Source: Hyphomicrobium sp. (GTDB taxonomy: Bacteria > Pseudomonadota > Alphaproteobacteria > Rhizobiales > Hyphomicrobiaceae). Taken from it: a stretch of 51,903 bases of DNA. Positions within the stretch are counted from its first letter, which is position 1, and every line of letters starts with the position of its first letter. The position numbers and the translations under genes are program-made. The stretch spans positions 1-51,903 of the forward strand of contig JANNUW010000024.1 of assembly GCA_031414095.1 (NCBI GenBank), in the 5' to 3' direction. Positions 15,023-51,903 of this stretch are shown piece by piece. Below the pieces are notes generated by a model, which saw only the letters and a list, made by a program, of their open reading frames with translations, did not search any database and was not told the DNA's origin.

Positions 15023-15057
15023 GTTGGTTGCCACAATGTTAGTCGTTGGATCTTTGC

Positions 15058-17658: not shown

Positions 17659-17661
17659 AGC

Positions 17662-19840: not shown

Positions 19841-20266
19841 TTAGTCGGCGTTCGGCCGGCCCAATAGCAACGCCACGGCCTTGCAGACGTCATGATCATT
19901 ATAAGGTTTGGCGAGCACCGGGTTCATTTGAAATTCCGTTGGAAGTGCCATTTTGATATCGAATCCGGTTGAAAACACAAAGGGGACGAGTTGCTTGCGC
20001 AAAGCTTCAGCTATTGAGATAGTCGTCGTCTCGCCTAACCGGACATCCAAAAATGCAGCGTCGAATTTTTCAGATTGGATCAGCTTCAAGGCTTGCGGAA
20101 CGGTGCTCGCAATTGCAACTTTAAGTGCGCCGCAATCCAACAACATGCTTTCGAGATCGAGAGCGATCAGCATTTGATCTTCGACAACCAAGCATGAAAA
20201 CGCACCAGCGTACGGTAACGTACCATTCGTCACTGAGCACTCCGATCGTTGGGTAACTATGGACAT
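19841..20266 (-). CDS. single-domain response regulator (receiver only)
   Basis: Receiver signature is present: LVVEDQ acidic pocket, phospho-acceptor in AAFLDVRL, FVFSTGF, and conserved Lys in LAKPY. There is no output domain. Confidence 0.8.
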   Translation of the reverse strand: MSIVTQRSECSVTNGTLPYAGAFSCLVVEDQMLIALDLESMLLDCGALKVAIASTVPQALKLIQSEKFDAAFLDVRLGETTTISIAEALRKQLVPFVFSTGFDIKMALPTEFQMNPVLAKPYNDHDVCKAVALLLGRPNAD

Positions 20267-36006: not shown

Positions 36007-36182
36007 TATTTTTCCCCTTGAGACACGCCTGCCGAATGCGCCGGCCTGTGGCTTCGATCAGCCGAGGCGCAAGCATGAGGGCGGGCCGGCTATGTATCAG
36101 TCCATCCGGGGCAGCAAGTAAACTCCACAGCGATGCGTTGGTAAAGAATGCGCAGTGCGCTGACATGGGGCCTTCAGAAGTT

Positions 36183-36283
36183 AAAGTTTCATCACGCCGT
36201 ATTACAGAAAGTTTCGTCGCGGACCCGGTAACTACAAAACCGGAATTGTCACCCGTGAAGCGTTGAATAATGGTTTTGTAGTT
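36183..36283. promoter_or_regulatory. direct repeats plus 12-bp perfect inverted repeat upstream of the Sel1/Srf-like locus (candidate regulatory region)
   Basis: The direct repeats are AAAGTTTCATCACGC (36183-36197) and AAAGTTTCGTCGCGG (36208-36222), 25 nt apart. Next come AACTACAAAACC (36230-36241) and GGTTTTGTAGTT (36272-36283), separated by 30 nt. All lie in the 480-bp divergent spacer 36007-36486. Confidence 0.3.
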
Positions 36284-36486
36284 TGGGGTTCTGATCAACG
36301 GCCGGCGCAAGTTCTATTCTTTAGCACCCGATAGACAGCACAGGTTTTGTCCCTGTACAAATCTACGGCTTGAACACCTTGCGTGTCGCTAGCCGCCGGT
36401 CAATTTGGGCAACGCCGAATTGAAGTGTCCTGATTAAAGTGTTGAGTGAGGTCGCGTAGTTTGGCCTCGAAAGGGAAGCGCGAGAC

Positions 36487-37548
36487 ATGACTCAGAAACC
36501 GCCGATGCTTCAGCAAGTTGAGGGAACAGGCACGGGTGCGGCAGGTTCGGCGATAGTCAAGCAGCTCGGCGATGGCGCCCGCGACCTCGGTCCCTCCAAC
36601 GCATCCGGTCCGGGCCCAGCCGCCGCTTCCACGCCGGAAATTTACGAGATGCTGGCCGAGCTTCGCCGCGATCTTGACGCGCGTCGCGCTGAGCAGCCAA
36701 GCTCGCAAGGCGGCGACGACGGTGAACTTTTTTCGATGATGTCGGATTTGCGCCGCGATATGTCGGTGCTGAAAAGATCTGCGGTCTCGATCCGCCCAGC
36801 CGGCACGTCGAGGCCTGCCGGCACCGGCGCAATTCCAGCAGCGAAGGTGCCCGCGCCGCGAGCCGCGCAGCCGCCCAGCGTCTACGTGCCGGTCTACGAT
36901 CTGGCTCCCGAGCCATCGTTCATGCGCAAACTCTTCAGCGAAGAGAAACGTCCAGCACTGTCATTGGCGACCGCGCTCGCCATCGCCGTGAGCGGACTCT
37001 ATCTGATTACCAACAGAGGTCCGGCGGCGGCGACCCTTGCGGCCGCTCCGGCGCTGGTTGCAACGGGCTCGACGAGCGTCGCGGGCGTGACCACTGGAAC
37101 GGCGCTTTTTGAAGCGCTGTCGGCCGGAGCCTCCTCGCCGCAAGGCATATCGGCGAAGGGCGTAACAGCGACCCGCGCGTTATCGCGGGCCAACGCGCAG
37201 CTCCAGATCAAAGGCGCGGCGCGCGATACGCAAGAGGCCGCCTTCTGGTTGAAGAGATATATGACAGACACTCTGGGCGATGTCCGCATGGCGCGCGCGC
37301 TGACGCAACTCGGCGCCACCTATGCCGAGCAGCAGAACGATAAGGCCGCCGGCTACGTCAAGGCGCGGCAGCTATGGGAGATGGCGGGCGCTCTGGGAGA
37401 TCCGGTGGCTATGTGCTTCTTGGGCCGTCTGTTCGAAAACGGCTGGAGCGTTGCCGCCAACAGCACGACGGCGCTGCGGTGGTTCGAACGCGCGCGCGAT
37501 GCGGGGGGCTGTCCCGGAGTCGAGGATTCGATTGCAAGGGTACAGTAG
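36487..37548 (+). CDS. single-pass membrane protein with C-terminal Sel1-like repeats
   Basis: It has a disordered N-terminus, a TM segment (ALSLATALAIAVSGLYLITN) and C-terminal Sel1/TPR-like repeats (AAFWLKRYM..., GDPVAMCFLGRLFENGWSV, ALRWFERARDAGG). The last ~150 aa are paralogous to the C-terminus of the next gene. Confidence 0.75.
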   Translation: MTQKPPMLQQVEGTGTGAAGSAIVKQLGDGARDLGPSNASGPGPAAASTPEIYEMLAELRRDLDARRAEQPSSQGGDDGELFSMMSDLRRDMSVLKRSAVSIRPAGTSRPAGTGAIPAAKVPAPRAAQPPSVYVPVYDLAPEPSFMRKLFSEEKRPALSLATALAIAVSGLYLITNRGPAAATLAAAPALVATGSTSVAGVTTGTALFEALSAGASSPQGISAKGVTATRALSRANAQLQIKGAARDTQEAAFWLKRYMTDTLGDVRMARALTQLGATYAEQQNDKAAGYVKARQLWEMAGALGDPVAMCFLGRLFENGWSVAANSTTALRWFERARDAGGCPGVEDSIARVQ

Positions 37549-37677
37549 CGCGCCGCAAATCGAACGCCGCTTTGGCGGGAGCAAAAGTTGCGAGCGCCAG
37601 GACACGACGAATTGCGAACGGGCGCGGTCGCGGATGTCATGACGAATAATTCTGGACACGGGTGTGGAGAGTAAACT

Positions 37678-39552
37678 TTGAAACGGATCAGTGTCCAAGC
37701 GTACGAAGATCGCTCTCAAGCCGACGGCGGGCATGCCATTTTTTTGCTTGAGGGGGTGATGTCGATTCCGAGCCGTTCGACATTCAAGTTGCGGTCGGCC
37801 GAACCCAACCAGATCGGCGCCGATGGAGCCGTTTGGCAAGACAGCGAGATCTTCGCTCTTGAATCGCGGGTCAGCGCCAAGGGGATCGAACTCGTCGTCG
37901 GTCCCGACGTGGCAGAAGATCCGGGCCTGCTGGCCGGCGCGGTCATGGAAATCGAGATCGCTGAAGCCGGATTGCGTGGCGAATTCCTGTGGCCACAGAT
38001 CACGCCACGGGCCCGGCCGAAACGCAAAAACATCGCAGCCAACCGGCCGCGGCGCGACGTGCGGCCGGGAGACGGCCATCCGCGCTCGGAAAGTTCCGGC
38101 ACTGCGGAGGGCGAACGGGTCGCCTCCGTCGCCGCGACTGAGCCGGTATCGGCTGACCGGCAAGCGGCCGTTCCGCCCGGTAGCGTGCCAGACTCCAATC
38201 GGCCTTTCGCTCCCACTGAGTCAGCGACACGTCCAGTTTCGGCCGTCCGGCCAGCGAGCGCCTTGATGGACGCTCACTTGAAGGCATTGAAAAACGCCAC
38301 ATCGGTGCCGGCGCTGCCGCTGACACTTGCTTTTAATGATGCAGGGAGATCGATCGTGCCTTTTGATCGCAAGACACCGGCGCAGTCGACGGCTGGATCG
38401 TCGAAACCTCCTCAGCCGACTGTCACCGCGGCACCCGCGGCGCCAGTTGCCGATTTGCCGGCGATCGACAGCGTGTCCGGCAAGGCCGCAGCGAGCGCGA
38501 CGGCGCAAGCACCCGAGCCCGAGTTGGCGCCGCCGCTCATCGATCCGCACGGCGCGCATGTCAATCTTTCGACGGCGTTGGTGTTCGAGTCCGATCCCAA
38601 CGATCCCAACGAGCCCAAAGCGGAGGAAAATCCCTGGGCTTGGAGAAAGGACGTCACAGCAATGCTGTCGACAAAATTTCTCGCCATGGGCAGCCCCGGC
38701 AAGCCGGGTGAAAAGGCGACATCAGCGAAGCCTTCGCAACCACCGCTTGGCGCATCTACACACCCGGTTATTATCGACAGAGCTGTGTCACGGCCGCCTG
38801 GTGTGGCCGCGTGGGTCCGCGACAACGCCGAAGCCGGATCGACATTCATCAAGCGGGCAAATACCAGCGCTTTACCGAGCGGATGGCCCACGTACGCAGC
38901 CGGGCTATGCGCGGCGCTGGCTTTAGGTGCGCTCGGCCTGCAACTGGCGGGAAAGCTGCCAGATTTTAAGGCGGCAACAGCCGTCGAACCCGCGCGCGCC
39001 GTCACGGCCGCAGCGGCACCTGGACCGTTTGCGAGCGTGCCTCCTGCCGGAACTTTCGCCGCGCCCTCGCCGGCTGACGTGGCCGGAAGCGTTGCCCAGC
39101 CGGGCACACTTTTTGACGCGCTGACAGTCGGCGAAACGTCGCCGCGGGGTACGGCCGTTGCCAATATCAGCGCGACCAAGGCGCTCGAAACGGCCAATAG
39201 CATGCTGCTTGCCGACGGCGCTGCGCGGGATTCTTCTGAAGGCGCGTTCTGGCTCAAGCGCTACATCAGGGGCGTCATTGGCGACGAGCGGAATATGCGC
39301 GTCGTCACGCAGTTGGGGTCGCTGTATGCCGAACCCACGGGTCAAGTTCCCGATTTCGAAAAGGCCCGGACGCTGTGGGAGATTGCGAGCGCTGCCGGTG
39401 ATCCGGTGGCGATGTGTTTCCTCGGCCAGCTTCATGAAAATGGTCTGGGCCTCGATCTCGACAAGAAAACCGCCTTGCATTGGTACGAACACGCCAAGCA
39501 AGCCGGCGGTTGCAGCTCGGTCGATGAAGCCATCACGCGTGTCAGGAATTGA
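37678..39552 (+). CDS. membrane protein: conserved ~110-aa N-domain, long Pro-rich linker, TM segment, periplasmic Sel1-like repeats
   Basis: TTG start is preceded by GGAGAG. The N-domain MKRISVQAYEDRSQADGGHAIFLL...LLAGAVMEIEIAEAGLRGEFLWP is paralogous from residue 1 to the N-terminus of the 48743 gene. The TM segment is WPTYAAGLCAALALGALGLQLAG. The Sel1-like C-terminus is GDPVAMCFLGQLHENGLGL, ALHWYEHAKQAGG. Confidence 0.75.
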   Translation: MKRISVQAYEDRSQADGGHAIFLLEGVMSIPSRSTFKLRSAEPNQIGADGAVWQDSEIFALESRVSAKGIELVVGPDVAEDPGLLAGAVMEIEIAEAGLRGEFLWPQITPRARPKRKNIAANRPRRDVRPGDGHPRSESSGTAEGERVASVAATEPVSADRQAAVPPGSVPDSNRPFAPTESATRPVSAVRPASALMDAHLKALKNATSVPALPLTLAFNDAGRSIVPFDRKTPAQSTAGSSKPPQPTVTAAPAAPVADLPAIDSVSGKAAASATAQAPEPELAPPLIDPHGAHVNLSTALVFESDPNDPNEPKAEENPWAWRKDVTAMLSTKFLAMGSPGKPGEKATSAKPSQPPLGASTHPVIIDRAVSRPPGVAAWVRDNAEAGSTFIKRANTSALPSGWPTYAAGLCAALALGALGLQLAGKLPDFKAATAVEPARAVTAAAAPGPFASVPPAGTFAAPSPADVAGSVAQPGTLFDALTVGETSPRGTAVANISATKALETANSMLLADGAARDSSEGAFWLKRYIRGVIGDERNMRVVTQLGSLYAEPTGQVPDFEKARTLWEIASAAGDPVAMCFLGQLHENGLGLDLDKKTALHWYEHAKQAGGCSSVDEAITRVRN

Positions 39553-41181
39553 GTGAGTATGCAGCATCGTCTCAGCGCGCTTGTGAACAGCTTACGGTCT
39601 CGGGCGGCAGCGGCCGTCCCGCGCGGCACCGCTATTTATCCGTTCGCCCTTGCGGCCGCACTTTCGCTCGTTGGCGGTGTCTGGATGCTGGGCGGCTTCC
39701 AGCGCGCGGATAGTCAAACAGCAACGGCCGCTGGTCCGGCCACCGTCACGTCCAGCGACCGGACCCATTCCGCTGGGAGCACGGCAGCCGCCCCGTCATT
39801 TTCCTTTGCCGACAACCGGCCCATCGCGGCGGCCGGGCCCGATGTCGACACACCGGTACAGATTGCTGCGGCTGCCACACAAACGGCACCGGCGTCGTTT
39901 GCCGATACGCGGCCGTTGCCGGCGGCCGAGCTGGATCGAGCGAAGGCGGCAGATCAGCTCAACGCCTCGGCTGCATCGTTTAGCGATGCACGGCCGCTCA
40001 ACGCCACGTCCTTCGAAGATGGCCGTCTGGTGGAATTGCCTCCGTTGTTTCAAGATAGGCGTCCGGTTGCCGCCCCCATATTCACCGATGAAAGACTTGC
40101 GGGCGAACCGGCCTTCAATGATGTTCGCCCCGTTGCTGCGCCCTCGTTCAACGACGACCGCGTGCTGGCGGTCGATTCCGGCCGTGAGGCAGTTCGCGAT
40201 GCAGTAGGCACCGTCGAGACGCCGGTGGCTTCGACCACCCCGCCCGCAGCGATTGTCACGGTGATGACAAAAGCTGAACCGGCAACGGCTCCCGCTTCTG
40301 CCGTCGATGCCCCGGCGGTGCCGGTAACGGCAGCATCGCCTCCAGCGGCAGCGCTCTCTGCGGCGGCAGCCGCCGATCCTGTAAAGACAGCGGGCCTGCC
40401 GACGCTGGTCGCGGTTTCACCCTCGTCAATCCGGCTCGATGCCACCGGCGCCTGCAGTGCAACTGAAATTTCAACGGAGCCGCTCGACGGCGGCCAGATG
40501 CGCATTCGCATCGCGGCTGGCTGTCACGCGGGTGAAGCCGTGCAGATCAGTTATGGCGGCGCCGAATTTATCCGCAAATTGAACGCCTGGGGCGCGCTCG
40601 ATTTTGTCCTCGATTGTTTTGCCGGAAGTGGCTCGGCAGCCGAAGTCAGATTGGCAGACGGCAGCCGCAAAACTCTGCCGGTCGTGGCCAACGATCTCGA
40701 CAAGGTTTCTAAAATCGCGGTGGTGTGGCGCGCGGCGACCAACCTCGATCTGCATGTCTTCGAGTATGGCTCGCGCGACGATGAGCCGGGTCACCTGTGG
40801 GCTAAAGCGCCATCGTCAATATCATCGGCCCTTATCCAAGCCCAGGCAGACAAGCGTGGACATGGCGTCCTGAGCGCAGTCGACGACGGCGAGACTCTCG
40901 GCGACAAGGTCGAGGTCTACACCTTCGTGCACAACGACGAGCAGGCGACGGGCGCGATCTCGATGGCGCTCGATTACGAATCGCGCGGCGAAAAACCCTC
41001 AGGCGCAAACTGCGGCTCCGGCGCGCTGGCGGAGGTCGATTTCCAGGTCAACATTCTTCCCCGTAATGGTCAGGTCTCACGCCAAGCCGGTATTTTGACC
41101 CGTGTCGATTGCGGTTCGACTATTCCGCGCGAAGCCCGCTTCAATCAATCGGCGTTGCCGGTTTTGCGAATTAAGAAATAG
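39553..41181 (+). CDS. membrane-anchored periplasmic protein: F-x-D-x-R-P degenerate repeats plus Cys-containing C-domain (hypothetical)
   Basis: It starts directly after the upstream stop (GTG 39553, or ATG 39559). The N-terminal anchor is PFALAAALSLVGGVWMLGG, followed by eight short repeats. The ~250-aa C-domain (LDGGQMRIRIAAGCHAG...NLDLHVFEY...VEVYTFV...ALDYESRG) is paralogous to the C-terminal half of the 48743 gene. Confidence 0.75.
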   Translation: MSMQHRLSALVNSLRSRAAAAVPRGTAIYPFALAAALSLVGGVWMLGGFQRADSQTATAAGPATVTSSDRTHSAGSTAAAPSFSFADNRPIAAAGPDVDTPVQIAAAATQTAPASFADTRPLPAAELDRAKAADQLNASAASFSDARPLNATSFEDGRLVELPPLFQDRRPVAAPIFTDERLAGEPAFNDVRPVAAPSFNDDRVLAVDSGREAVRDAVGTVETPVASTTPPAAIVTVMTKAEPATAPASAVDAPAVPVTAASPPAAALSAAAAADPVKTAGLPTLVAVSPSSIRLDATGACSATEISTEPLDGGQMRIRIAAGCHAGEAVQISYGGAEFIRKLNAWGALDFVLDCFAGSGSAAEVRLADGSRKTLPVVANDLDKVSKIAVVWRAATNLDLHVFEYGSRDDEPGHLWAKAPSSISSALIQAQADKRGHGVLSAVDDGETLGDKVEVYTFVHNDEQATGAISMALDYESRGEKPSGANCGSGALAEVDFQVNILPRNGQVSRQAGILTRVDCGSTIPREARFNQSALPVLRIKK

Positions 41182-41189
41182 GGGCCGCT

Positions 41190-42821
41190 GTGAAGAAATG
41201 GCACCTGTGGATCGCGGCCGCGCTTTCAATGGCGAGTTCGCCCATTGCAACGGCTTGGGCGGGCGCGGCGGTCGTGCTGCGCCTCAAAGACACCGGCTTT
41301 GAATTTTCAGGCGAGCTAAAATCCTTCGATGGTTCCAAGTATGTCGTCGCAGCTCCCGCGTTTGGCGTGCTGTCGCTCGACGCCGCGCGCTTCGATTGCG
41401 AGGGCGAAGCGTGCGGGCGAGCCGCGGGCGGGACCAAGTTTGAGACGTCGGCTACCGCATCGCCGGCACCGTCGGCGATATTCACCATAGAGGCCAACGC
41501 CGGCGGCCATCAGACGTTCGCCATCGACGGCTCGGCTACTATCGGCCACGAGTTGATGCCCCAGCTCATCCGCGATTACGCCAGCAGTTTGGGCGGCGCG
41601 GCCAAGCAGATCATCGGCGGCGCCAGCGGCAGCGTGCGCTTCAAAATCACCGACGCGCGCGGCAGTGAACTATCGGACGTCGAACTGAGGCGCCGGAGTT
41701 CGACGGACGCCTTCGGTGCGCTCATCGCGGGCCGCGCAGATATCGGCATGTCGAGCCGTCCGATCTCAGCGTCCGAAGCGGCCGCCATGCCAGCCATGGC
41801 CGGCGGCGTTCACGGCGCGGGCGGCGAAGTCGTTCTCGCGCTCGATGCCCTCGCCGTGCTGGTTGCTCCCGGCAATCCGGCGGCGTCGATCTCGATGGAG
41901 GCGCTCGCCAAAGTCGCATCGGGCAAATTTACGAACTGGTCGCAGCTTGGTCTGCCGGCGGGACCGATCAAGCTCTACGCCGGCAGTCGTTTGTCAGGCG
42001 CGGGCGAAGGTTTCGACGAACTGGTGCTGAAGCCTCGCGGACTGACACTGGCCGCGCGGGCAACGCAACTGCAAACGGACGCCGAGTTGTCGGATGCCGT
42101 CGCGCGCGATCGCCGGGCCATTGGAATCACCTCGCTCGCGTTCTTGCGCAACGCCAAGTCTCTCGCCATCGCCGATGACTGCGCAATGACCACCGCGCCA
42201 TCAATTTTTTCCGTTAAATCGGAAGAGTATCCGCTCGGCCGCCGACTCTATCTCTATTCAAAGGGATTGGCAGACAACTCCGTCGCGCGCGGGCTTCTGA
42301 CATTTGCAGGTTCGCAGACCGCCCAGGCCAGTGTGCAGACCAGTCAGTTTATCGACCAGTCGATCGAACTGTCCGATTTTGTCACTGAGCGCGCACGTTT
42401 CGACCGAGCGATTAAAGGCGCGCTACGCGAGACGGAGCGCGAGCAAGCGCGGGCTGTTACTGCTGCCCTGAAAGGCGCGCGGCGGCTGTCGGCAACGCTG
42501 CGCTTTGCATCGGGCTCATCCCAGCTCGATGCCAAAGCACGCGATGACGTGGCGCGTGTGCGCGAGCTGCTGGTCTCGCCAGCGCTCCGAGGCAAGACCG
42601 CGCTCTTCGTCGGGTACACCGATAGCATCGGCAGCGCCAAGGCTAACAGAGACTTGTCATACCGCCGCGCTGTTCAAATTCGCGATGCTGTGTTGGGCGA
42701 ACGCCCTGCCGGCAAAGCGCCCGTTGTGGTCGGCGGCGGGACGTTGGCACCCGTCGCGTGTGATGCAACGGATAATGGGCAGCGCCTCAACCGGCGGGTC
42801 GAGGTATGGCTGCGAGATTGA
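41190..42821 (+). CDS. periplasmic PstS-like substrate-binding domain fused to OmpA-like peptidoglycan-binding domain
   Basis: GTG start lies 8 nt after the upstream stop. Signal peptide is MKKWHLWIAAALSMASSPIATAWA. PBP (PstS-like) motifs are IDGSATIG, ALAVLVAPGNP, SGKFTNWSQLG, AIGITSLAF and EYPLGRRLYLY. The C-terminal OmpA motifs are FVGYTDSIGSAKANRDLSYRRA and NRRVEVWL. Confidence 0.8.
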   Translation: MKKWHLWIAAALSMASSPIATAWAGAAVVLRLKDTGFEFSGELKSFDGSKYVVAAPAFGVLSLDAARFDCEGEACGRAAGGTKFETSATASPAPSAIFTIEANAGGHQTFAIDGSATIGHELMPQLIRDYASSLGGAAKQIIGGASGSVRFKITDARGSELSDVELRRRSSTDAFGALIAGRADIGMSSRPISASEAAAMPAMAGGVHGAGGEVVLALDALAVLVAPGNPAASISMEALAKVASGKFTNWSQLGLPAGPIKLYAGSRLSGAGEGFDELVLKPRGLTLAARATQLQTDAELSDAVARDRRAIGITSLAFLRNAKSLAIADDCAMTTAPSIFSVKSEEYPLGRRLYLYSKGLADNSVARGLLTFAGSQTAQASVQTSQFIDQSIELSDFVTERARFDRAIKGALRETEREQARAVTAALKGARRLSATLRFASGSSQLDAKARDDVARVRELLVSPALRGKTALFVGYTDSIGSAKANRDLSYRRAVQIRDAVLGERPAGKAPVVVGGGTLAPVACDATDNGQRLNRRVEVWLRD

Positions 42822-43059
42822 ACTGTAAATGGCGGATCGCCGCTCCGCTATCGCGGCCGATCCACGTCTCGCGCGCCTTCCACTACCGGCCAACTTAGGG
42901 AATAACCATGTTGCGAGGTTGCTGCCATGGTCGCGTTCCGTGAGACGGTTTTTACTGCTAATGATACGCTGATCGGGCACTTCTGCCGCCGCGCATTTCC
43001 ACTGCCCCGTTCGCTGATTGTTGTGCCGGGTCTGCAAGTTCTGAAAGAGGCTCGGACGT

Positions 43060-46000
43060 ATGCCGTATAACGGGGACACCGCCGGCTTAGAGCCTCCCAG
43101 TGCCTACGGCCTAGACAGCACCGATGGCGAGACTCAGCCAGGCCGCGACGCCGTGACTTTGATACCCAACAGTTCGATTCAGTTTCTCAACAGGACCATT
43201 GAGGCCGATGCGGCCGCCGCGGTAGGCCGCCGCTTTTTTGAGGATACGAATGCCGCTGCCGACAGCGACGGCGCCGTTCTTTACACAGTGAAGCTCGAAG
43301 ACGACGGATCGTTTCATCATCCCGTCACCAACCTTGTCGCCGATGTTCGTCAAACCTACGCTATTGATGGCGTCGCAGCCCTCGATGCCTTCCTCGACAC
43401 TTGGCTGCCGGTTCCCTACATGCGTATGCTCGAGGGAGAGGAAGGCGAAACTTACCTCGACGAGGGCCCCTCGAACTGGGCGCGGATTCACATCAGCCGC
43501 AGCAATGCCAGCGACGAGGCGCCGATCAGCCATCGGATGGTGCTCGCCATCGACACGACGTGCTGTGCCAAGCAACGCGGACGCACGCGCACATTTGCGG
43601 CGCCCTCGCTCGAGGATGCCGAGCACGGCGGCGTCTTCCGGTTCAGCGACGACGAGGCCGAAATTGCGTGGTTCGTTACCGAGGCGTGGGTCGACGACTG
43701 GCTGCGCGAAACCTATGCCGCACAAAAGCTGCCGGCTGGCGGCGCGAGCGAAGTCGATCAAGCCGAGTTCGAGGGCTCCGAGCCTTCGGCCCTTGAATAT
43801 CTCGGCCACTACCTCACGCTTCTTGCGGTTTTGAAGCAGGCCGTCGGTCTGCCCGACATTCGCCTTCAAGCGCTCGGCCGCAGCTCCAACCTCGCCAGCA
43901 GTGTCGGCGTCGATCTCGTCGTCGATATCGGCAACAGCCGCACTTGTGTTCTACTGAGTGAAACAGGCAAGGCCGTCGCGGGTCACGATGATCTCAAATG
44001 TCAGCTGCTGGCGCTGCGCGATTTCGATCAGCCCTGGCGCGAGCACAGCGGCCTGTTCTCCAGCCGCATCGAATTTTCGCGAGCGTCCTTCGGCAAGGAA
44101 TCGTTGTCTCGCTGGAGCGGGCGCACCAATGCGTTTTATTGGCCGAGCCTCGTGAGAGTGGGTCCGGAAGCGCAACGGCTCGTTTCGCAAAGCCACACGA
44201 CGACGGATATCACCGGGCTGTCGGGGCCGATGCGTTATCTGTGGGACGATCAGCCAGGTGATCAGCCGTGGCGATTTGCGCGAACGCTCGACAATGCTCC
44301 GCGGCGGCGCGCTTTGGTGTCGGGGCCGCTGCTCGGATTCATTTCTGAAACCGGCGATGTGCTGCCCGAGGGCAGTCGCGCCGGTTCGACCACCAAGCCG
44401 CGCTTTTCGCGCTCGTCGCTGCTGACGTTCTTTGGCAACGAGATCATCATGCAGGCAATCGTCGCAATCAATTCGCCGGATTACCGGGCCAACAAGCAGC
44501 GTGCCGATGCACCGCGCCGCATTGAGCGGATTTTGGTTACCGTGCCGTCTGGTGTGCACCCGCGTGAACGTCACATCATGCTGCAACGGCTGCGTGCGGC
44601 GGCTCAGCTCACTTGGGATGGTCTGGGCTGGCAGGGCGTGCCGGGCGCCGCGCCGTTGCCTTTGGTCAGTCTCGTCGAAGACAACGCCACAAACGCGCAG
44701 ACCGCCTATTTGTACAACGAGATCGAACACAAGTTCCGCGGCAAGGCGTCGGAGTATTTCGATCTCATGGGCAAGGCCCGGCCCGGCCACCGTTCGGCCC
44801 GCGCCATACGTGTTGCGAGCCTCGATATCGGCGGCGGCACCACGGGATTATCGGTCAACAATTGGGAACTGCAGTCGAAGGGCATTGCGCGCGCTCCATT
44901 GGCCGTTGATGGCTTCTCGGTCGGCGGCGACGATATTCTGAAGCGCATCATCGAAGCCCATGTCATGCCCGCGATCGAACGCGGCTTGAGCGAGAGCAAG
45001 CTTGGCAAGCCAAAGCGCTTTCTCGACGACATCATTGGCGGCAAGGCGAACGGCCGCCCCTCATGGATCGCCGAATTCGGCAGACGCTTTGCGGCCGAGT
45101 TCGCGATGCCGGTTGCACTGGCACTGCTCAATGAAAGCCGTGAGGCCCGCGCCGCGGGCGATGACGTCCTAGTCCGGCGATCGTTCCGGCAACTGCTCGA
45201 AGCCGCCGAATTTATGCCAAAGGCTGTGATCGAGGAATTCGACGAACTTGCCGCCGACGAAGGCGCTGACGGGTTTGCAGTGCTCGATGCCGGCATAGAT
45301 GTGCGCCATCGCGATCTGAAACAGACGATTGGCGAAGTTCTCACTCCGCTTCTCAGTAACACCGTGCGCATCATAGAGGCGCTCGATTGCGATCTGGTGC
45401 TGCTGTCGGGTTGGACGACGTGCCTGCCGCCAGTTCTCGATGCCTTACTGGGCGGATTGGCGACCCAGCCAAACCGCATCGTAGCGCTGCACGGCATGCG
45501 CGTGCATCCGTGGTATCCGCACCTCGACGAAACGGGCGTAAAAATCAAGGATGCCAAATCGGTGGCCGCAGTCGGCGCGCTGCTCGCCAGTCCGAAGGCA
45601 TCGAACGGCGATAGCGGCTTTACGATTATCGCAGCGCCGGCCGGGCCCGAATGCCGCCGGCTGTTCGTCGGTAGGCTTGGTTCGGATGGACTGGTCAGAA
45701 ACGATCAGATGCTCTTCGTGTTCGATGAGGCCGCCGCCCCCCTGCAAGGCAAGGCCGGTAGCGATGCACAATGCACGATCAAGGCCGATCTGCCGGCGGT
45801 GCTCGGTGTGCGCCGCCTGGCACTCGAGCGATGGCCGGCGTCCCCGCTATTTGTCATTGATCTCAGTGATCTTAATGCCGCAGATCGCCCAAAAATGCCC
45901 GTCGAGGTCACGCTCGAGCGGGTTGCAGGCGAGACAGGGCAGCCTGATGAGTTACGTATTGTGAAGGTCCGGGATGGTCATGGCAGTAGCCTGCCGCCCT

Positions 46001-46080
46001 CGGACCTGGAGATTAGATTGCAGACACTGACCGCGCGAAATGGACACTGGTCCGACACCGGCGCGATTTTGACTGCATGA
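43060..46080 (+). CDS. srfB: SrfB-like protein with actin/HSP70 (ASKHA) ATPase motifs
   Basis: It is 1006 aa with no signal peptide or TM segment. The N-terminal VTLIPNSSIQFLN and the size recall the SrfB family. The ASKHA motifs are phosphate-1 DLVVDIGNSRT (aa 289-295), phosphate-2 LDIGGGTTG (aa 589-595), VGGDDILKRI, and adenosine motif DLVLLSGWTTCLPPV (aa 778-790). The family call is from memory, not a search. Confidence 0.65.
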   Translation: MPYNGDTAGLEPPSAYGLDSTDGETQPGRDAVTLIPNSSIQFLNRTIEADAAAAVGRRFFEDTNAAADSDGAVLYTVKLEDDGSFHHPVTNLVADVRQTYAIDGVAALDAFLDTWLPVPYMRMLEGEEGETYLDEGPSNWARIHISRSNASDEAPISHRMVLAIDTTCCAKQRGRTRTFAAPSLEDAEHGGVFRFSDDEAEIAWFVTEAWVDDWLRETYAAQKLPAGGASEVDQAEFEGSEPSALEYLGHYLTLLAVLKQAVGLPDIRLQALGRSSNLASSVGVDLVVDIGNSRTCVLLSETGKAVAGHDDLKCQLLALRDFDQPWREHSGLFSSRIEFSRASFGKESLSRWSGRTNAFYWPSLVRVGPEAQRLVSQSHTTTDITGLSGPMRYLWDDQPGDQPWRFARTLDNAPRRRALVSGPLLGFISETGDVLPEGSRAGSTTKPRFSRSSLLTFFGNEIIMQAIVAINSPDYRANKQRADAPRRIERILVTVPSGVHPRERHIMLQRLRAAAQLTWDGLGWQGVPGAAPLPLVSLVEDNATNAQTAYLYNEIEHKFRGKASEYFDLMGKARPGHRSARAIRVASLDIGGGTTGLSVNNWELQSKGIARAPLAVDGFSVGGDDILKRIIEAHVMPAIERGLSESKLGKPKRFLDDIIGGKANGRPSWIAEFGRRFAAEFAMPVALALLNESREARAAGDDVLVRRSFRQLLEAAEFMPKAVIEEFDELAADEGADGFAVLDAGIDVRHRDLKQTIGEVLTPLLSNTVRIIEALDCDLVLLSGWTTCLPPVLDALLGGLATQPNRIVALHGMRVHPWYPHLDETGVKIKDAKSVAAVGALLASPKASNGDSGFTIIAAPAGPECRRLFVGRLGSDGLVRNDQMLFVFDEAAAPLQGKAGSDAQCTIKADLPAVLGVRRLALERWPASPLFVIDLSDLNAADRPKMPVEVTLERVAGETGQPDELRIVKVRDGHGSSLPPSDLEIRLQTLTARNGHWSDTGAILTA

Positions 46081-48722
46081 GTGGAGCGGTTGGCGTGATG
46101 AATACAGTTGAGTCCAGGCTGCAGTTTGCTTGCAAGCAGGTGAGCGGTGCTGCCAGCGAGATGCTGGATTGGATCGACGACAATCCCAGTATCGTCGCGA
46201 CCGAGCGGCTGTCGATGCTGCACGAATTCTATGGCATCGACGTACGCGCGGCTGGCCTCGGGGCTGCCGTCAATCAACCGCCCTGCGTTGCCTTCGTGGG
46301 TCCGAGCCGGTCGGGCAAGACGCAAGTCTTCACATCGCTGATCGAGCGCGGCCGCGGCCCGCTCAATATGCGTTTTGACGGAATTCGCGAGCAGGTCGAT
46401 TATCAGCGGCTGATCGTGCCGGACGGTTCCAAGCAGGGTGCCTCGATGGTCATCCGGCTTTCGGAGCAGAAAAAAACACCGCCGCAGAATTTCCCCATCC
46501 GGGTGCGGCTGCTGTCGCTCGCCGACGTCATCAAGGTTCTTGGCAATGCGTTCTTTACCGCGTGCAAGGACCGGCAGCCGGCGCCGAGTTTGGCCGACGT
46601 TCGCAGCATGCACGCGCGCGTTACGGCCAAGACGGCGGACAGTCCCGTCGCCGGTTTGACTGAGGGCGATATCTGGGAGGTGCGCTCGTACTTCGCCAAG
46701 CGCTTCGGCGACGAGCCGATTTTCCGTGCGTTGTCGGCGGCCGGATTCTGGCAATCGCTGGCGACGCTGGCGCCGTATCTCTCGAACGCGGCGCGCGGCG
46801 AGTTGCTGGGTCTCATGTGGGGCGGCCTGGAGCCGTTCCGGCTGGCGTTCACATCGCTTGCTGAAATTCTGGCGAGCCTGGGCGGTAGCCTCGAGGCCAA
46901 CTGCGCGCTCGATTCTATTCTCAGTCTCGATCCCCGCACCGGCAAACTGCTGCGCCGCGAAGACAGCATCATCAACGCGCAAACCATCGACGGCTTTGTC
47001 GGCTCCGACGATCAGTCGGTGCTGGTGTGCGGAGAGTTCGGCAATTGGGTTTCGATCAGCCGCTCTGGTTTGGCGGCTCTCGCCGCCGAAGTGCGGCTAC
47101 CGGTTCCGGGCTGGTCGAGCGAGGTTTTGGAAAAAGCGGACCTGCTCGAATTCCCCGGCATCGATCCGCGCGAAAGCATCCCCAATCTCGACCGCACGCT
47201 GAATCGCAAGCCAGCGCTTTTGGCGCAACTTTATGCGCGCGCCAAGTCTGTCTACCTGCTCGATCGCTACACCGAGGAACTCGCCATTACCTGCATGGTG
47301 GTATGCATCGATCCAGCGAGCGTCCAGGTCGGCGAGTTGGCGGGCCTCGTGTCGGAATGGATTGAACGCTCGCATGGCCCTGACGCCATCGCCCGCGAGC
47401 AGCAGGATACCGGGTTGTTCCTGGCGTTCACGAAACTCGACAAGGATTTCGCCGACGTGTCGCGCGGCGTCAAGGAACGCAAGATCGATTGGGACCGCCG
47501 CATCGGCGACATTCTCATCGAAGGCTTCGGGCGCGGTCACAGTTGGCCGCTCGAGTGGACGCCTTCGCGGTCGTTCGACAGTATTCATCTTCTGCGCAAT
47601 CCCGGCTTCAAAGCCAAGCAGGTCTGCGATTACTCGCGCGAAGGACGCGAGATCGGCTTCAAGCCCGGCCAGCCGGAACGCATCGCGCGCGCAAATAGAG
47701 AGTTTTTGAAGAGCGAGATCGTACGCCGTCACGTTTCGGACCCGATGAACATCTGGAACGAAGCCCTGGCGTTGAACGACGGCGGCATCACCTATCTCGG
47801 CCAATCGATCGCTGGCGTCTGCGATAAGCGCGTTAAGGTCCGCCAGATCGTGACGGCGCTGAACTCGCTGCGCCAACTGATGAAGGACCGGTTGCAGCGT
47901 TATTACCTCGCCGATAATTTCGAACTGCAGCGCGACAAGCGTCATACCTCGGGGTTGCTCGTCGTACGGCGGCTGAAGTTTTGCGCCGAGCGCCGCCGTC
48001 TCGGGCACCTGATACGGGCTTTCCAACTATCGGAAGCGGAGTTCGCCGACGTTCTGCAGAACATCGAAGTTCGCAGCCATCTGCCCACCGCATCGGAGAA
48101 GGCCTCTGCACAGGCGGCGGGCATGAACGGAGCAGGCGCCAACGGCAGCGTGACCGAGCTCCGCAAATCCGATACCGCCGCCGAGGCATTGTTGTTTGCC
48201 CGCACGTCGATCGACCATTGGATCGATGCCGTCCGGTCGACTGCGCAGGCGGCGGGCGCGTGCCAGCGCTTCGAGATGCCGCGTCAGGCACTGCTATCTC
48301 TCGTCGACGAGCTGATCGTGGGGGCGACGCGCATGGAGTTCGAGCACCGCGTTGCCGCGCACATCGAGTCTGCCATCCTCAACGAGGCCGACAAAGACGC
48401 GCGGCTCGCCAAGGCCGCGATCTGCGTCGCCGAGGCAGTCGGGGGCTACGTCATGCGGCTTGGATTCGATGATATCTTCTCCAACAGCCATCCGCGCCGC
48501 AAGGGACATGCGCAAAAGCCGATCTTTCCGCCGCGCAATGCAATCTCGCTCGCCGACCTCGATGATCAACCGAGCCCGGAGACAGAATTTTATTCCGACT
48601 GGTCGCAGGCCTTCATTACCATGGTCGACGATAACGCCGCCGGTTTGCGCGAGCGTGATATTGAAGACGAACAGAACCAGAGGCTCGGCCAACTGCTGAG
48701 ACTTCTGGAAACACCCATCTAA
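46077..48722 (+). CDS. srfC: SrfC-like P-loop protein with dynamin-type GTPase motifs
   Basis: The ATG overlaps the upstream stop (ATGA). G1/Walker A is GPSRSGKT (aa 75-82), G3-like is DLLEFPG (aa 355-361) and dynamin-type G4 is TKLD (aa 452-455). It is 881 aa and cytoplasmic. Its position after a SrfB-like gene matches the srfB-srfC arrangement. The family call is from memory. Confidence 0.6.
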   Translation: MSGAVGVMNTVESRLQFACKQVSGAASEMLDWIDDNPSIVATERLSMLHEFYGIDVRAAGLGAAVNQPPCVAFVGPSRSGKTQVFTSLIERGRGPLNMRFDGIREQVDYQRLIVPDGSKQGASMVIRLSEQKKTPPQNFPIRVRLLSLADVIKVLGNAFFTACKDRQPAPSLADVRSMHARVTAKTADSPVAGLTEGDIWEVRSYFAKRFGDEPIFRALSAAGFWQSLATLAPYLSNAARGELLGLMWGGLEPFRLAFTSLAEILASLGGSLEANCALDSILSLDPRTGKLLRREDSIINAQTIDGFVGSDDQSVLVCGEFGNWVSISRSGLAALAAEVRLPVPGWSSEVLEKADLLEFPGIDPRESIPNLDRTLNRKPALLAQLYARAKSVYLLDRYTEELAITCMVVCIDPASVQVGELAGLVSEWIERSHGPDAIAREQQDTGLFLAFTKLDKDFADVSRGVKERKIDWDRRIGDILIEGFGRGHSWPLEWTPSRSFDSIHLLRNPGFKAKQVCDYSREGREIGFKPGQPERIARANREFLKSEIVRRHVSDPMNIWNEALALNDGGITYLGQSIAGVCDKRVKVRQIVTALNSLRQLMKDRLQRYYLADNFELQRDKRHTSGLLVVRRLKFCAERRRLGHLIRAFQLSEAEFADVLQNIEVRSHLPTASEKASAQAAGMNGAGANGSVTELRKSDTAAEALLFARTSIDHWIDAVRSTAQAAGACQRFEMPRQALLSLVDELIVGATRMEFEHRVAAHIESAILNEADKDARLAKAAICVAEAVGGYVMRLGFDDIFSNSHPRRKGHAQKPIFPPRNAISLADLDDQPSPETEFYSDWSQAFITMVDDNAAGLRERDIEDEQNQRLGQLLRLLETPI

Positions 48723-48742
48723 GCGACTAGGACCGCCGTCCC

Positions 48743-50308
48743 GTGAAAAAAGTCACTGCAGAGGCTTTCGAAGATACGAGCCGCCCGGAGGGTGGGCATG
48801 CCGTGATCCTGATCGTGGGATTGGGCGGCGTGTCCGACCACCCGACGTTTCGCTTGAGGCCTGTCGATTCCGGCCTTGCCGCCGATCATCGCGGCCTATG
48901 GGCTGGCCGGCCCGTTTCGCCATTGGCAACCCGTCAGACAGAACGGGGAACCGAGTTTGTCGTCGGGCCCGATATCGTCGACAATCCGTTGCTGCTGGCC
49001 GGAACTGCGGTTTCGATCGAAATTCCCGAAGCCATGGTGCGCGGCGAATTCCTGTGGCCCAACGTAACGTCGCTGGCCCAGCCCAAGCGCCGCCATGTCG
49101 TGTCGTCGCGCCGGTCGCGCACGCCGGAGCCGGCGGAACAGCCCGGCCTCGACGTAAGTATGGCCGCACCAATTGGCGTTGACGACGGGCTGGCAACCGA
49201 GCAACTTCCGGGCGTCTCAATGCAGCTGCCCGCTGTTGTCGTGCCCGGCCATGAACTCATTGCGTCCGGCGAGCAAGAGCAGCCGAATGCCGACGCGGTG
49301 CTGTTGCGGTCTGCGCACCGCTCTGGTGGGTGGGCGGCCGAGCAGAGCCACCGAAGCGGCAAGCGCTGGTTCGCCTCGGTCGCGACGGCCTGCGCAGTTG
49401 TGATCGGATTTACTCTGCTGGTGCAGTCTGTGCGCGAGAAAGCGGCGCGGGAAGCCGATGAACTGGACGTTGCCAGCGTCAGCCAAACCGTGCGCCAAGA
49501 CGCCGTGGCGGCCGCAGTCGGCGCCGTGATGAAACCGTCGCAAGCCACAGCCGTTCAACTGCCGCCGTTGCCGGTCAGTTGCGAACTGCCGTCAATTTCG
49601 AGCGATCCGCTCGACGGCGGCCGCATGCGGCTGCGCTTCGCATCGGCCTGTCATGCCGGACAGAAGGTCAAGCTCAGCTACGGCGGCGCAGATTTTGTCC
49701 GCGACGTCGACAGCGCCGGAGCTTTCGATGATGTCGTCGACGGTTTCGCGGGCCCGGCAAGCAGCGTCGACATCGTCTTTCAAGACGGTAAAACACAGAC
49801 CGTGAAGATGGCCGCCAACGACTTCAATCGCATCACCAAAATTGCGGTGTTCTGGCAGGCGCCCGTCAATCTCGACCTGCACGTGTTCGAATATGCCGCT
49901 AAGCCCCAACAGAAGGGGCACATATTTGCCAAGGCACCATCGGACGCGACGGCGGCTCAAGACGCGGTCTCGGCCGATCACCGCGGCCATGGTTTCATGA
50001 GCACACTTGGCGACGGCACGAGCGACCATCGCATGGTCGAAGTCTACACCTTGCTGCACCACGGGGAGCAGGTCTCGGGTCTCATCACCATGGCGGTCGA
50101 CTATGAAACCCGCGGTGACACGCCGAGTGCTAGCACCTGCCGGGGCGGCGCACTCGCAGAGATGCCGTTTCAGATCAGCGTGCTCGACCGGCGCGGCCAG
50201 ATTTCCACTCAGGCCGGTATTCTCGCGGCCGCCGAGTGCGGCAAGGCGCTCGACTCCAAGACGCGTTTTGACGACAGCGTTTTAACTCCGATCAAGATTG
50301 GCAAATGA
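48743..50308 (+). CDS. single-pass membrane protein fusing the N-domain (as in 37678 gene) to the Cys-containing C-domain (as in 39553 gene)
   Basis: GTG start lies 20 nt after the srfC-like stop. The N-domain is MKKVTAEAFEDTSRPEGGHAVILI...LLAGTAVSIEIPEAMVRGEFLWP. The TM segment is WFASVATACAVVIGFTLLVQSV, preceded by RSGKR. The C-domain is LDGGRMRLRFASACHAG...NLDLHVFEY...VEVYTLL...AVDYETRG. Confidence 0.75.
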   Translation: MKKVTAEAFEDTSRPEGGHAVILIVGLGGVSDHPTFRLRPVDSGLAADHRGLWAGRPVSPLATRQTERGTEFVVGPDIVDNPLLLAGTAVSIEIPEAMVRGEFLWPNVTSLAQPKRRHVVSSRRSRTPEPAEQPGLDVSMAAPIGVDDGLATEQLPGVSMQLPAVVVPGHELIASGEQEQPNADAVLLRSAHRSGGWAAEQSHRSGKRWFASVATACAVVIGFTLLVQSVREKAAREADELDVASVSQTVRQDAVAAAVGAVMKPSQATAVQLPPLPVSCELPSISSDPLDGGRMRLRFASACHAGQKVKLSYGGADFVRDVDSAGAFDDVVDGFAGPASSVDIVFQDGKTQTVKMAANDFNRITKIAVFWQAPVNLDLHVFEYAAKPQQKGHIFAKAPSDATAAQDAVSADHRGHGFMSTLGDGTSDHRMVEVYTLLHHGEQVSGLITMAVDYETRGDTPSASTCRGGALAEMPFQISVLDRRGQISTQAGILAAAECGKALDSKTRFDDSVLTPIKIGK

Positions 50309-51903
50309 TGTTTGGGCGACGCGATATACGGGGAGAACCTATTCCAGGCAAGCATCGCAGCCGGCCGGCAGTGCGCGCAGCAGCCGCCGTTTGCGCTCTC
50401 GTGCCGCTGCTGGCCTCGCAGACGCTCGCCGGCGAAGTCACGCTCAAGATGAAAGGCGGCGATCTGGAAGTTGCAGGCGAACTCGTGGCCTTCAACGGCC
50501 TCAAGTATACCATCACCGCTCCCGCGTTCGGCACCATGACACTCGAAGCGGCGCGCTTTGAATGCATCGGAGCCGATTGCACCCGGCTCAGTGTGGCTCC
50601 CGCGCTGGCGCCCGAACGCCTCGATCCTTCAGCACCGGGCGCCTTCACGGTGCGTGGTTCCGCTTCGATCGGCTCGGGATTGATGCCAGCGCTCATTCGC
50701 GGCTACGCCAACTCGCTCGGCGCGTCGATGACACAGATCGTCGGCACGTCGCCGGGCGAATCGAAGTTCAAGCTCGGCGATGCCGCCGGCGCTGAACTGG
50801 CAACCATCGTCGTGCAAAAAGAAGGGTCTGCGGCAGCCTTCGCCGCGCTCGCCCAGCCCGATACGATCGCCATATCTGATCGCGTTATCGCCGAACAAGA
50901 GGTGGCAGGCTTGGGTGCCTCGGGCGGCCGCATCCGCACACCCGAAAACGAGCACGTGCTCGCCGACGACGCGCTCGCGGTCATCGTATCGCCCGACAAC
51001 GCAGCCGTCTCCATGCGCGAGGATACGATCGCCAAAGTTTTTGCAGGTCAGTTGACCGACTGGTTCGATCTGGGGGTCTCGGGCGGAAAAATCACGCTCT
51101 ACACGATGGCGCCTGTGAGCGAAGTACAAAACGTCTTTGCGAATTTGGTACTGAAGCCGCGCGCGCTGACGCTGTCGGATCAGGTCCGTGTCGTCGAGAC
51201 CGAAGGCGATGTCGCCGATGCCGTGGCGCGCGATCCCAACGGCATCGGCATTACGTCGCTGGCTTTTCTGCGCAACGCCAAGCCGCTGAACATCGAAGGC
51301 AGTTGCGGGCTCATCACCAGGCCGTCGCCGTTCTCGGTCAAGTCAGGCGAGTATCCGCTGCGCCGGCGGCTGTATCTCTACAACGCCAAAACGCTTGATC
51401 AGCCGGCCGCGCGCGGGCTTTTGCGCTATGCGCTCTCGAATGAATCGCAGGCTGAAATTGCCGCCAACCAGTTCGTCGACCGGTCCATCGAAACGCTCAG
51501 CCTCGATGATCAGAAATGGCGGATGGCGCATGCCGCCAATGCGCCCGCACCCGTGTTTGACGCCGAACAGATGCGCGCTCTGCTCGCCGACGTGAAGGGC
51601 GCGCGGCGGCTGTCATTGACTTTCCGTTACGTCACCGGCACGACCGATCTCGACGCGGGCTCGCGCGAAAACGTGGCGAGGCTTGCGACGCTGCTGCAAG
51701 GACCGCAGTACGCCGGCAAAAAGGTCTTGCTGATCGGCTTTACCGACGGCGCTGGTCGGTTGCAGGCGAATATGAGCACGGCCAACAAGCGCGCTCAGCA
51801 AATTCGCACCGCGGTGTTGGCCGGAAGCGGCGGTCACGTCAACGTCGCCGGGATCGATGTGCGCGGGTACGGCCCCCTAGCGCCCGTTGCGTGTTCCGAC
51901 ACC
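50305..51903 (+). CDS. second PstS-like substrate-binding / OmpA-like fusion protein, 3'-partial
   Basis: This ORF is not in the track because it runs off the window. I translated it by hand and found no stop from 50305 to 51903. The ATG overlaps the upstream stop (ATGA). Signal peptide is AVCALVPLLASQTLAGE. PBP motifs are VRGSASIG, ALAVIVSPDN, AGQLTDWFDLG, GIGITSLAF and EYPLRRRLYLY. The OmpA-like start is LIGFTDGAGRLQANMSTANKRA. It is a paralogue of 41190-42821. Confidence 0.8.
   Translation, partial: MMFGRRDIRGEPIPGKHRSRPAVRAAAAVCALVPLLASQTLAGEVTLKMKGGDLEVAGELVAFNGLKYTITAPAFGTMTLEAARFECIGADCTRLSVAPALAPERLDPSAPGAFTVRGSASIGSGLMPALIRGYANSLGASMTQIVGTSPGESKFKLGDAAGAELATIVVQKEGSAAAFAALAQPDTIAISDRVIAEQEVAGLGASGGRIRTPENEHVLADDALAVIVSPDNAAVSMREDTIAKVFAGQLTDWFDLGVSGGKITLYTMAPVSEVQNVFANLVLKPRALTLSDQVRVVETEGDVADAVARDPNGIGITSLAFLRNAKPLNIEGSCGLITRPSPFSVKSGEYPLRRRLYLYNAKTLDQPAARGLLRYALSNESQAEIAANQFVDRSIETLSLDDQKWRMAHAANAPAPVFDAEQMRALLADVKGARRLSLTFRYVTGTTDLDAGSRENVARLATLLQGPQYAGKKVLLIGFTDGAGRLQANMSTANKRAQQIRTAVLAGSGGHVNVAGIDVRGYGPLAPVACSDT

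Follow-up and report, generated by a model that had tools for sequence, protein, structure and literature searches.

The window analysed here is the whole 51,903-nucleotide (nt) stretch at positions 1 to 51,903 of contig JANNUW010000024.1 (forward strand) in the Hyphomicrobium sp. assembly GCA_031414095.1. Its last part is occupied by eight open reading frames (ORFs), g1 to g8, all of which lie on the plus strand (Table 1). Two large genes for SrfB and SrfC are flanked by genes for bitopic membrane proteins and for proteins in which a PstS-type binding-protein fold is fused to an OmpA domain (PstS-OmpA). Two further domains recur in the membrane proteins and are referred to by their positions, namely an N-terminal one shared by g2 and g7 (N-domain) and a C-terminal one shared by g3 and g7 (C-domain). 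The locus is a variant of the srf cassette without SrfA, found in Hyphomicrobium-like Alphaproteobacteria; the core of SrfB, SrfC and an N-domain membrane anchor is conserved across the Proteobacteria, and the periphery of the cassette is interchangeable. A preceding interpretation made from the DNA letters (the sequence-only reading) had listed the eight genes with their domains, paralogies and order, and the ORF coordinates, Pfam matches and blastp comparisons agreed with it.

Table 1. Features of the srf-type locus, in window coordinates (TM, transmembrane segment, in residues of the respective protein).
Feature	Position	Strand	Basis or remark
Intergenic, candidate promoter region	36007..36486	.	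480 nt, divergent, between the minus-strand HAMP gene (34969-36006) and g1
g1, Sel1 bitopic protein	36487..37548	+	Pfam Sel1 E 3.5e-7; TM ~156-176
g2, N-domain/TM/Sel1	37678..39552	+	Pfam Sel1; TM 406-425
g3, TM/repeats/C-domain	39553..41181	+	TM 25-49
g4, PstS-OmpA	41190..42821	+	Pfam PBP_like_2 9.6e-20, OmpA 2.4e-11
Gap before srfB	42822..43059	.	238 nt
g5, SrfB	43060..46080	+	PF07520
g6, SrfC	46077..48722	+	PF10139 (Virul_Fac)
g7, N-domain/TM/C-domain fusion	48743..50308	+	blastp paralogy; TM ~208-231
g8, second PstS-OmpA	50305..51903 (window end)	+	PBP_like_2 143-380, OmpA 443-525

The g2/g3, g3/g4 and g6/g7 junctions have gaps of 0, 8 and 20 nt, and overlaps of 4 nt were found at g5/g6 and g7/g8. 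The gaps and the ATGA overlap at 50305 stood as they had been read. The ATGA overlap at 46077 is uncertain because the gene callers and the closest orthologue use Met8 (46098) as the start of SrfC; srfC follows srfB directly on the same strand, either with the 4-nt overlap or, with the start at 46098, 17 nt apart. One sigma-70-like match, which is a match to the consensus only, lies upstream of g1 at 36160-36187. A terminator scan gave no excess over shuffled sequences and no convincing terminator in the gap before srfB, and an alignment of this gap across seven loci showed no element conserved across lineages. Hydropathy analysis revealed a single transmembrane-like segment in each of g1, g2, g3 and g7, and neither a signal peptide nor a transmembrane segment in g5 and g6, as had been proposed for the two large NTPases. 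As shown by blastp, the C-termini of g1 and g2 are ~50% identical, the N-termini of g2 and g7 are 39% identical over 132 residues, the C-termini of g3 and g7 are 48% identical over 243 residues, and g4 and g8 are 43% identical over 505 residues.

The assignment of the two large proteins to the SrfB and SrfC families, which the sequence-only reading had suggested, was confirmed by profile searches over their full lengths. SrfB (g5) matched PF07520 with an E-value of 5.2e-211 (703.8 bits, with the cut-off at 27.1; residues 10-991 of the 992-position profile), and SrfC (g6) matched PF10139 with an E-value of 1.4e-171 (573.2 bits, with the cut-off at 28.1; positions 2-878 of 878). The phosphate-1, phosphate-2, GGDD and adenosine-type motifs of the Hsp70/actin (ASKHA) superfamily are present in SrfB in the canonical order: DIGNSRT at 289, TVP, DIGGGTT at 589, GGDD at 622 and LLSG..LP at 781. 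When SrfB was aligned by hhalign with the nucleotide-binding domain of DnaK, TVP, DxGGGT and GGxD were in register, in a weak comparison (E 0.0015, probability 17%). Judged by its motifs alone, SrfB is a probable Hsp70/actin-type ATPase. In SrfC, a G1 motif (GPSRSGKT, 75-82), a G3-like motif (DLLEFPG, 355-361) and a G4 motif (TKLD, 452-455) are followed by helical bundles, and the three motifs are near-invariant in 30 homologues. An AlphaFold2 (AF2) model of SrfC was obtained with a predicted local distance difference test score (pLDDT) of 84 and a predicted template modelling score (pTM) of 0.87. Foldseek searches with this model returned SynDLP (6.6e-8), BDLP (1e-5), IniA (9e-5), a Campylobacter dynamin-like protein (DLP) and Fzo1/mitofusin, with a Foldseek probability of 1.00 for SynDLP, BDLP, IniA and Fzo1. 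By structural similarity, the model comprises a GTPase domain and helical neck and trunk bundles. SrfC is thus, by its predicted fold, a dynamin-like GTPase, with GTPase activity as the predicted function. Searches of the PDB by sequence, with g5, g6 and g7 and with SrfC and SrfB profiles, yielded nothing meaningful, and a literature search found no paper that connects bacterial SrfC with dynamins.

The membrane proteins around this core share their domains in different combinations. In g2, the N-domain (residues 1-115) is followed by a long linker rich in proline and alanine, the transmembrane segment and a Sel1 domain that is predicted to be periplasmic. In g3, an N-terminal transmembrane anchor precedes eight F-x-[DN]-x-R repeats (residues 85-199) and a predicted periplasmic C-domain (~300-542) with conserved cysteines. 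In g7, the N-domain (1-115), a disordered linker, the transmembrane segment and the C-domain (~280-521) are joined in one polypeptide, which thereby unites what g2 and g3 carry apart. Because the two domains occur fused in g7 and split in g2 and g3, the N-domain and C-domain proteins appear to be functionally linked. Four cysteines of the C-domain and two of the Sel1 tail are invariant; they sit in the predicted periplasmic parts and therefore fit a periplasmic location. Together with the positions of the transmembrane segments, they accord with the topology that had been proposed, a cytoplasmic N-part and a periplasmic C-part.

The AF2 model of g7 contains an all-beta N-domain (pLDDT ~90), a transmembrane helix and a C-domain of two beta-rich lobes, and Foldseek searches with it found nothing but generic Ig-like sandwiches (TM-scores under 0.35). 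Neither g3 nor g7 belongs to a Pfam family (g3 had no match even at E <= 1), and Pfam searches at E <= 1 with the isolated N-domain, C-domain, the domain preceding the PstS fold, the g1 N-part and the g3 N-part returned nothing. No named NCBIfam family was found for g1-g3, g5, g6 and g7. The N/C-domain family is nevertheless sizeable, although unnamed: an exhaustive profile search gave 1550 representatives, 332 of them at E <= 1e-30, and overturned a first word-index search, by which the g7 family had appeared tiny (32 clusters). The remaining membrane protein, g1, consists of a low-complexity N-part, a transmembrane segment and a Sel1-type C-terminal domain, and has no N-domain. No counterpart of g1 was found in the related loci examined, so that the conserved unit is g2-g8, and g1 is a lineage-specific extra paralogue.

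Six canonical srf loci (Cereibacter, Rhizobium, Klebsiella, Haematospirillum, Pseudomonas and Aeromonas) were inspected. In all six, SrfA, SrfB and SrfC are followed by a protein of ~340 residues that has no Pfam family and consists of an N-terminal domain, a proline-rich linker, a transmembrane segment and a TPR/Sel1-like tail. Five of the loci go on with a vWA protein, an ABC ATPase and an FtsX-type permease, to which four of these five add an FGE-sulfatase; in Rhizobium, PAN-domain proteins and a glycoside hydrolase come after the 340-residue protein. The periphery around the srf core is highly variable among the canonical loci, and in the canonical loci L001, L082, L083, L086 and L087 SrfA is preceded by two to three more unnamed genes that are also conserved; in Cereibacter, one of these encodes a trypsin-like protease. 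The N-Sel1 family of g2 was compared by hhalign with the canonical post-SrfC proteins, and a match of 90.7% (E 1.2e-6) was obtained with 4 sequences and of 94.7% (E 6.3e-8, 101 columns) with 37 sequences; a tblastn search of plasmids with the canonical post-SrfC protein was too insensitive, and a profile search was used instead. On the strength of this profile alignment, the N-domain of g2 and g7 is considered a homologue of the N-terminal part of the unnamed protein encoded after srfC in the canonical loci. In the window, it is g7 that occupies the position after srfC, and g2, the counterpart of this canonical protein, that combines the N-domain with a Sel1 tail. Among 47 loci with enough flanking sequence, the N-domain and SrfBC were found together in 12, the N-domain only in 1, SrfBC only in 1 and neither in 33 (p 3e-9).

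SrfA, a bitopic protein whose periplasmic domain is lipocalin-like and whose gene immediately precedes srfB in the srfABC operon, gave no NCBIfam match among the window proteins, and the gene upstream of srfB is a PstS-OmpA gene. The proteins g7, g2 and g3 were considered as SrfA homologues and rejected, as hhalign against four SrfA proteins returned a probability of 0.1%. The vWA protein, ABC ATPase, FtsX/Lol-type permease and FGE-sulfatase are likewise absent from the window and from the complete orthologous loci.

The best relatives of the locus were found in Hyphomicrobium and Hyphomicrobiaceae bins, with proteins 40-63% identical to those of the window. Contigs with homologues of g7 share the order Sel1 protein, g3-like protein, PstS-OmpA, SrfB, SrfC, g7-like protein and PstS-OmpA. 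The recurrence of this order in independent contigs, at a protein identity of 45-54%, makes conservation far above chance, and g2-g8 are a real, conserved operon of Hyphomicrobium-like bacteria. Each PstS-OmpA copy is nearest to the copy at the same position in the related loci, which indicates that the duplication of PstS-OmpA is old. The orthologous contigs also have a gap before srfB (~147-300 nt), and after the second PstS-OmpA gene they turn to unrelated genes on the opposite strand. The locus had been thought to possibly continue past g8, and the orthologous loci, which end at this gene, speak otherwise; of g8 itself, 533 residues are present and a few C-terminal residues are missing, against 520-539 residues in the orthologues. 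The idea that the flanking genes are conserved neighbours of SrfBC held within a Hyphomicrobiaceae clade and failed beyond it: they are not general SrfBC partners, and only the N-domain protein is common to the canonical cassettes.

Two other arrangements were observed. One is a tight five-gene operon of SrfB, SrfC, an N-domain/transmembrane/Sel1 protein, a C-domain protein and PstS-OmpA, which also lacks SrfA and has variable flanks. The other is the module alone (N-Sel1, C-domain and PstS-OmpA proteins), which has no SrfBC genes within 10 kb. The two bins in which it was seen each hold an SrfBC-linked locus elsewhere, which suggests that the stand-alone modules act in trans. These modules were located at L006/L014 (JANLQP010000093.1) and L016, and the SrfBC-linked loci of the same bins lie on other contigs (L043 and L020).

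A scan with the C-domain alignment, limited to one genome per species, gave 74 loci. All members with a class-level label belong to the Alphaproteobacteria, namely Hyphomicrobiaceae, Rhodomicrobium, Filomicrobium, Methyloligellaceae and some Rhodobacterales. A PstS-OmpA gene lies within 900 nt after the C-domain gene for 60 of the 69 such genes with downstream room, no other broadly conserved neighbour was found at the C-domain loci, and SrfBC is present in only ~13 of the 74. The C-domain protein and PstS-OmpA are a separate two-gene unit, which also occurs in cultured Rhodomicrobium vannielii and Hyphomicrobium; the PstS-OmpA partner, including that of R. vannielii ATCC 17100, is annotated merely as 'phosphate ABC transporter substrate-binding/OmpA family protein'. 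Minimal pairs (the R. vannielii ATCC 17100 cluster and, in Rhodomicrobium sp. Az07, L051 at 9884-12302) have a short C-domain protein of ~270-310 residues, which in L051 contains a lipobox-like LAGC, and a partner that is annotated by domain names alone and retains the complete PstS anion signature. In the window locus, this pre-existing unit of a membrane-anchored C-domain protein and PstS-OmpA has replaced the canonical periphery. The captured unit is present twice, once split (g2, g3 and g4) and once fused (g7 and g8), and it is through the fusion in g7 that it is tied to the core.

Within g4, a signal peptide (read by eye) and a beta pre-domain (~25-80) are followed by PBP_like_2 (164-372) and OmpA (438-535) domains; the sole window in its hydropathy profile is internal (207-232). 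In g8, an N-terminal hydrophobic, signal-like segment was found at 25-43. The beta pre-domain, which carries a cysteine pair and has no Pfam match, spans residues 25-80 of g4 and 42-97 of g8 (window positions 41262-41430 and 50428-50595) and lies ahead of the PstS fold in almost every PstS-OmpA protein of the family. The OmpA domains exceed the PF00691 cut-off of 27.2 bits (44.3 bits for g4, 33.9 bits for g8), and binding to the cell wall is predicted. The anion-site motifs were located by alignment to solved PstS proteins in the PDB. The consensus of 53 family members retains GSNT, SSRP and R..SGT. The site is degenerate in g4, where G replaces Arg and SGA replaces SGT, and more so in g8, where M stands at the Arg position, SEV replaces SGT and SDR replaces SSR.

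These data bear directly on a role in sensing or capturing phosphate or another oxyanion, in which the PstS domains would bind their ligand in the periplasm and signal to SrfBC through the bitopic proteins. The homology of g4 and g8 to PstS, and the full six-residue anion signature in 18 of 34 family members not linked to SrfBC, would favour such a role. The signature was found, however, in none of the 15 SrfBC-linked copies (and in none of 4 copies linked to N/Sel proteins only), g4 and g8 lack equivalents of its Arg and Thr, their TIGR02136 (PstS) scores of 97.8 and 93.5 bits are far under the cut-off of 206.6, and no pstCAB or phoU genes lie near the locus in the window or the orthologous contigs. 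As the signature is lost in the SrfBC-linked copies, these residue patterns suggest that such copies are probably not phosphate binders, and phosphate or oxyanion sensing by the locus is improbable. The 'ligand-binding' character that the sequence-only reading gave to the PstS fold did not survive in this respect, and coupling to a ligand is doubtful.

Outside the locus, the window is ordinary alphaproteobacterial chromosome, with genes for a cyclic-glucan synthase, a ligase/Lhr cluster, betaine uptake and oxidation, the pyruvate dehydrogenase complex and a divergent HAMP protein. At 10-8244 (+), a 2744-residue ORF truncated by the window start carries GH94 supersandwich, GH94 catalytic and glucoamylase domains and is cyclic beta-1,2-glucan synthase-like. 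Four genes at 12366-18384 (+) encode a metallo-beta-lactamase (MBL)-fold protein, an ATP-dependent DNA ligase, an Lhr-type DEAD helicase and a metallophosphoesterase; this cluster resembles the 'ligase-associated DNA damage response' set. Between 18400 and 20300, the GC content falls to 0.535 and only short ORFs occur, among them one of 141 residues at 19841-20266 (-) that looks receiver-like by eye. No tRNA or Rfam match was found there or elsewhere in the window. The 345-residue protein encoded at 34969-36006 (-), divergent to g1, has HAMP as its sole recognisable domain and is not kept beside the related loci.

Taken together, the favoured explanation is an envelope-spanning srf-type complex in which an SrfBC core is combined with wall-anchored modules, and we judge its chance of being right as about even. 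The cytoplasmic N-domains of g2 and g7 would bring SrfB and SrfC to the inner membrane, and the periplasmic Sel1 and C-domains would touch the wall-anchored PstS-OmpA proteins, which, without a phosphate site, may serve as anchors of a structural or protein-binding kind. Nucleotide-driven remodelling of the inner membrane (fusion, fission or repair) by the dynamin-like SrfC, which SrfB may assist or regulate, could in this way be coupled to the state of the wall or periplasm. The bitopic membrane protein SrfA binds SrfB and SrfC, according to co-immunoprecipitation and an AlphaFold 3 (AF3) model (PMC6950479; bioRxiv 10.64898/2026.09.18.752743), and thus offers a precedent for a membrane platform. 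The product of the locus is most likely an envelope-spanning machine for membrane remodelling or sensing, with a mechanism that is inferred, and the 'trans-envelope machine or sensor' proposed earlier is a reasonable inference.

Several observations weigh against this explanation. The gap before srfB permits separate transcription of the genes on its two sides. The pair of C-domain protein and PstS-OmpA mostly occurs without SrfBC (33 of the 47 loci with enough flank), which implies that the pair has its own function. The structural matches of the N-domain and C-domain are generic and uninformative on function, and the comparison of SrfB with DnaK is weak. The comparison loci come mostly from metagenome bins, which limits what can be said of genome-wide co-occurrence.

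Defence against phages or predators, in which the membrane would be remodelled or collapsed upon attack, has a low probability. The genomic neighbourhood of the locus differs among lineages, paralogous modules are expanded within genomes, and the OmpA domain weakly resembles ZorB, all of which would suit a defence system; a bacterial dynamin has, moreover, been linked to phage resistance. A PADLOC 2.0 scan of the eight proteins, on the other hand, matched only the OmpA domain of g4 to ZorB/MotB (weakly, E 2e-5) and returned nothing for the other seven, and the window neighbours are housekeeping genes, with no mobile-element or other defence genes adjacent. The possibility that two unrelated systems, an envelope unit of C-domain protein and PstS-OmpA and an SrfBC unit, merely lie side by side would account for the gap before srfB and for the many pairs without SrfBC, and is given only a slight chance: g7 joins the N-domain that goes with SrfBC and the C-domain in one protein, two different tightly packed arrangements recur, and the loss of the anion site is specific to the SrfBC-linked copies. 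The Hyphomicrobiaceae are free-living bacteria, and the loci come from environmental Hyphomicrobiaceae bins, both of which count against an exported tripartite toxin of the kind proposed for Xenorhabdus SrfABC. Export of SrfB and SrfC, followed by action on eukaryotic cells, is very improbable here, despite the cytotoxicity reported for lysates and proteins of SrfA, SrfB and SrfC (PMC6950479) and the description of SrfABC as a vesicle-exported toxin platform (bioRxiv 10.64898/2026.09.18.752743), given that SrfA is absent, SrfB and SrfC lack both a signal peptide and a transmembrane segment, the fold predicted for SrfC is that of an endogenous membrane-remodelling GTPase, and the neighbours are wall-anchored periplasmic proteins rather than secretion genes.

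These results have a bearing on srf cassettes at large. In thousands of genomes and plasmids, the srfABC genes carry the annotation 'virulence factors', and toxin activity is the sole functional claim made for them. The dynamin-like model of SrfC and the Hsp70/actin motifs of SrfB point towards an endogenous, membrane-attached machine. The same direction is indicated by the N-domain membrane protein, which is the constant third partner of SrfB and SrfC, and by a free-living clade that retains the core and exchanges the whole periphery for wall-anchored modules. The locus accordingly argues against the toxin reading of the cassette. The unit of C-domain protein and PstS-OmpA, unstudied so far, is defined here, and it illustrates how a binding protein may lose its ligand site upon recruitment to a larger system.

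A wider proposal, which we put forward tentatively and consider rather unlikely, is that the srf core of SrfB, SrfC and N-domain adaptor is a widespread endogenous machine of inner-membrane remodelling and not a virulence toxin, and that in the Hyphomicrobiaceae it is tied to the wall via pseudo-PstS-OmpA anchors, where it performs or guards fission, fusion or repair. This family includes budding, hypha-forming genera. A remodelling step in hyphal or bud formation, or upon envelope damage, can be imagined, and the tie to budding morphology is speculation. Full-text literature searches found no published description of the eight-gene set, as the sequence-only reading had supposed, and searches on PstS-OmpA fusions and on the Pfam accessions gave nothing relevant.

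When compared with canonical srfABC cassettes (Salmonella, Xenorhabdus, Klebsiella plasmids, Pseudomonas, Aeromonas, Rhizobium and Cereibacter), the window locus has adjacent, full-length SrfB and SrfC (26-32% identity) and a bitopic protein in which the same N-domain comes before a proline-rich linker, a transmembrane segment and a TPR/Sel1-like tail. It differs in that SrfA, the vWA protein, the ABC ATPase, the FtsX/Lol-type permease and the FGE-sulfatase are missing, two copies each of C-domain and PstS-OmpA proteins are present in addition, and an N-domain is fused directly to a C-domain. With bacterial dynamin-like proteins (Nostoc BDLP, SynDLP, IniA, Campylobacter DLP1/2 and LeoA) and mitofusin/Fzo1, SrfC shares the predicted fold and the G1, G3-like and G4 (TKxD) motifs. 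It has no detectable sequence similarity to them, however; its partner is SrfB instead of a second DLP, and no paddle or transmembrane region was identified in SrfC, so that attachment to the membrane would be via partner proteins. The g4 and g8 proteins resemble PstS (PBP_like_2, TIGR02136) in fold family and several motifs, whereas they carry a fused OmpA domain together with a pre-domain at the N-terminus, do not stand beside pstCAB and have lost anion-site residues. With the peptidoglycan-anchored stators and tethers MotB, ZorB, Pal and TssL, they have in common a C-terminal OmpA-like domain and the TD...R region of the wall-binding motif; unlike these proteins, g4 and g8 lack an ion-channel partner of the MotA, ZorA or TolQ type, and their OmpA domain is joined to a periplasmic binding-protein fold and not to a transmembrane helix.

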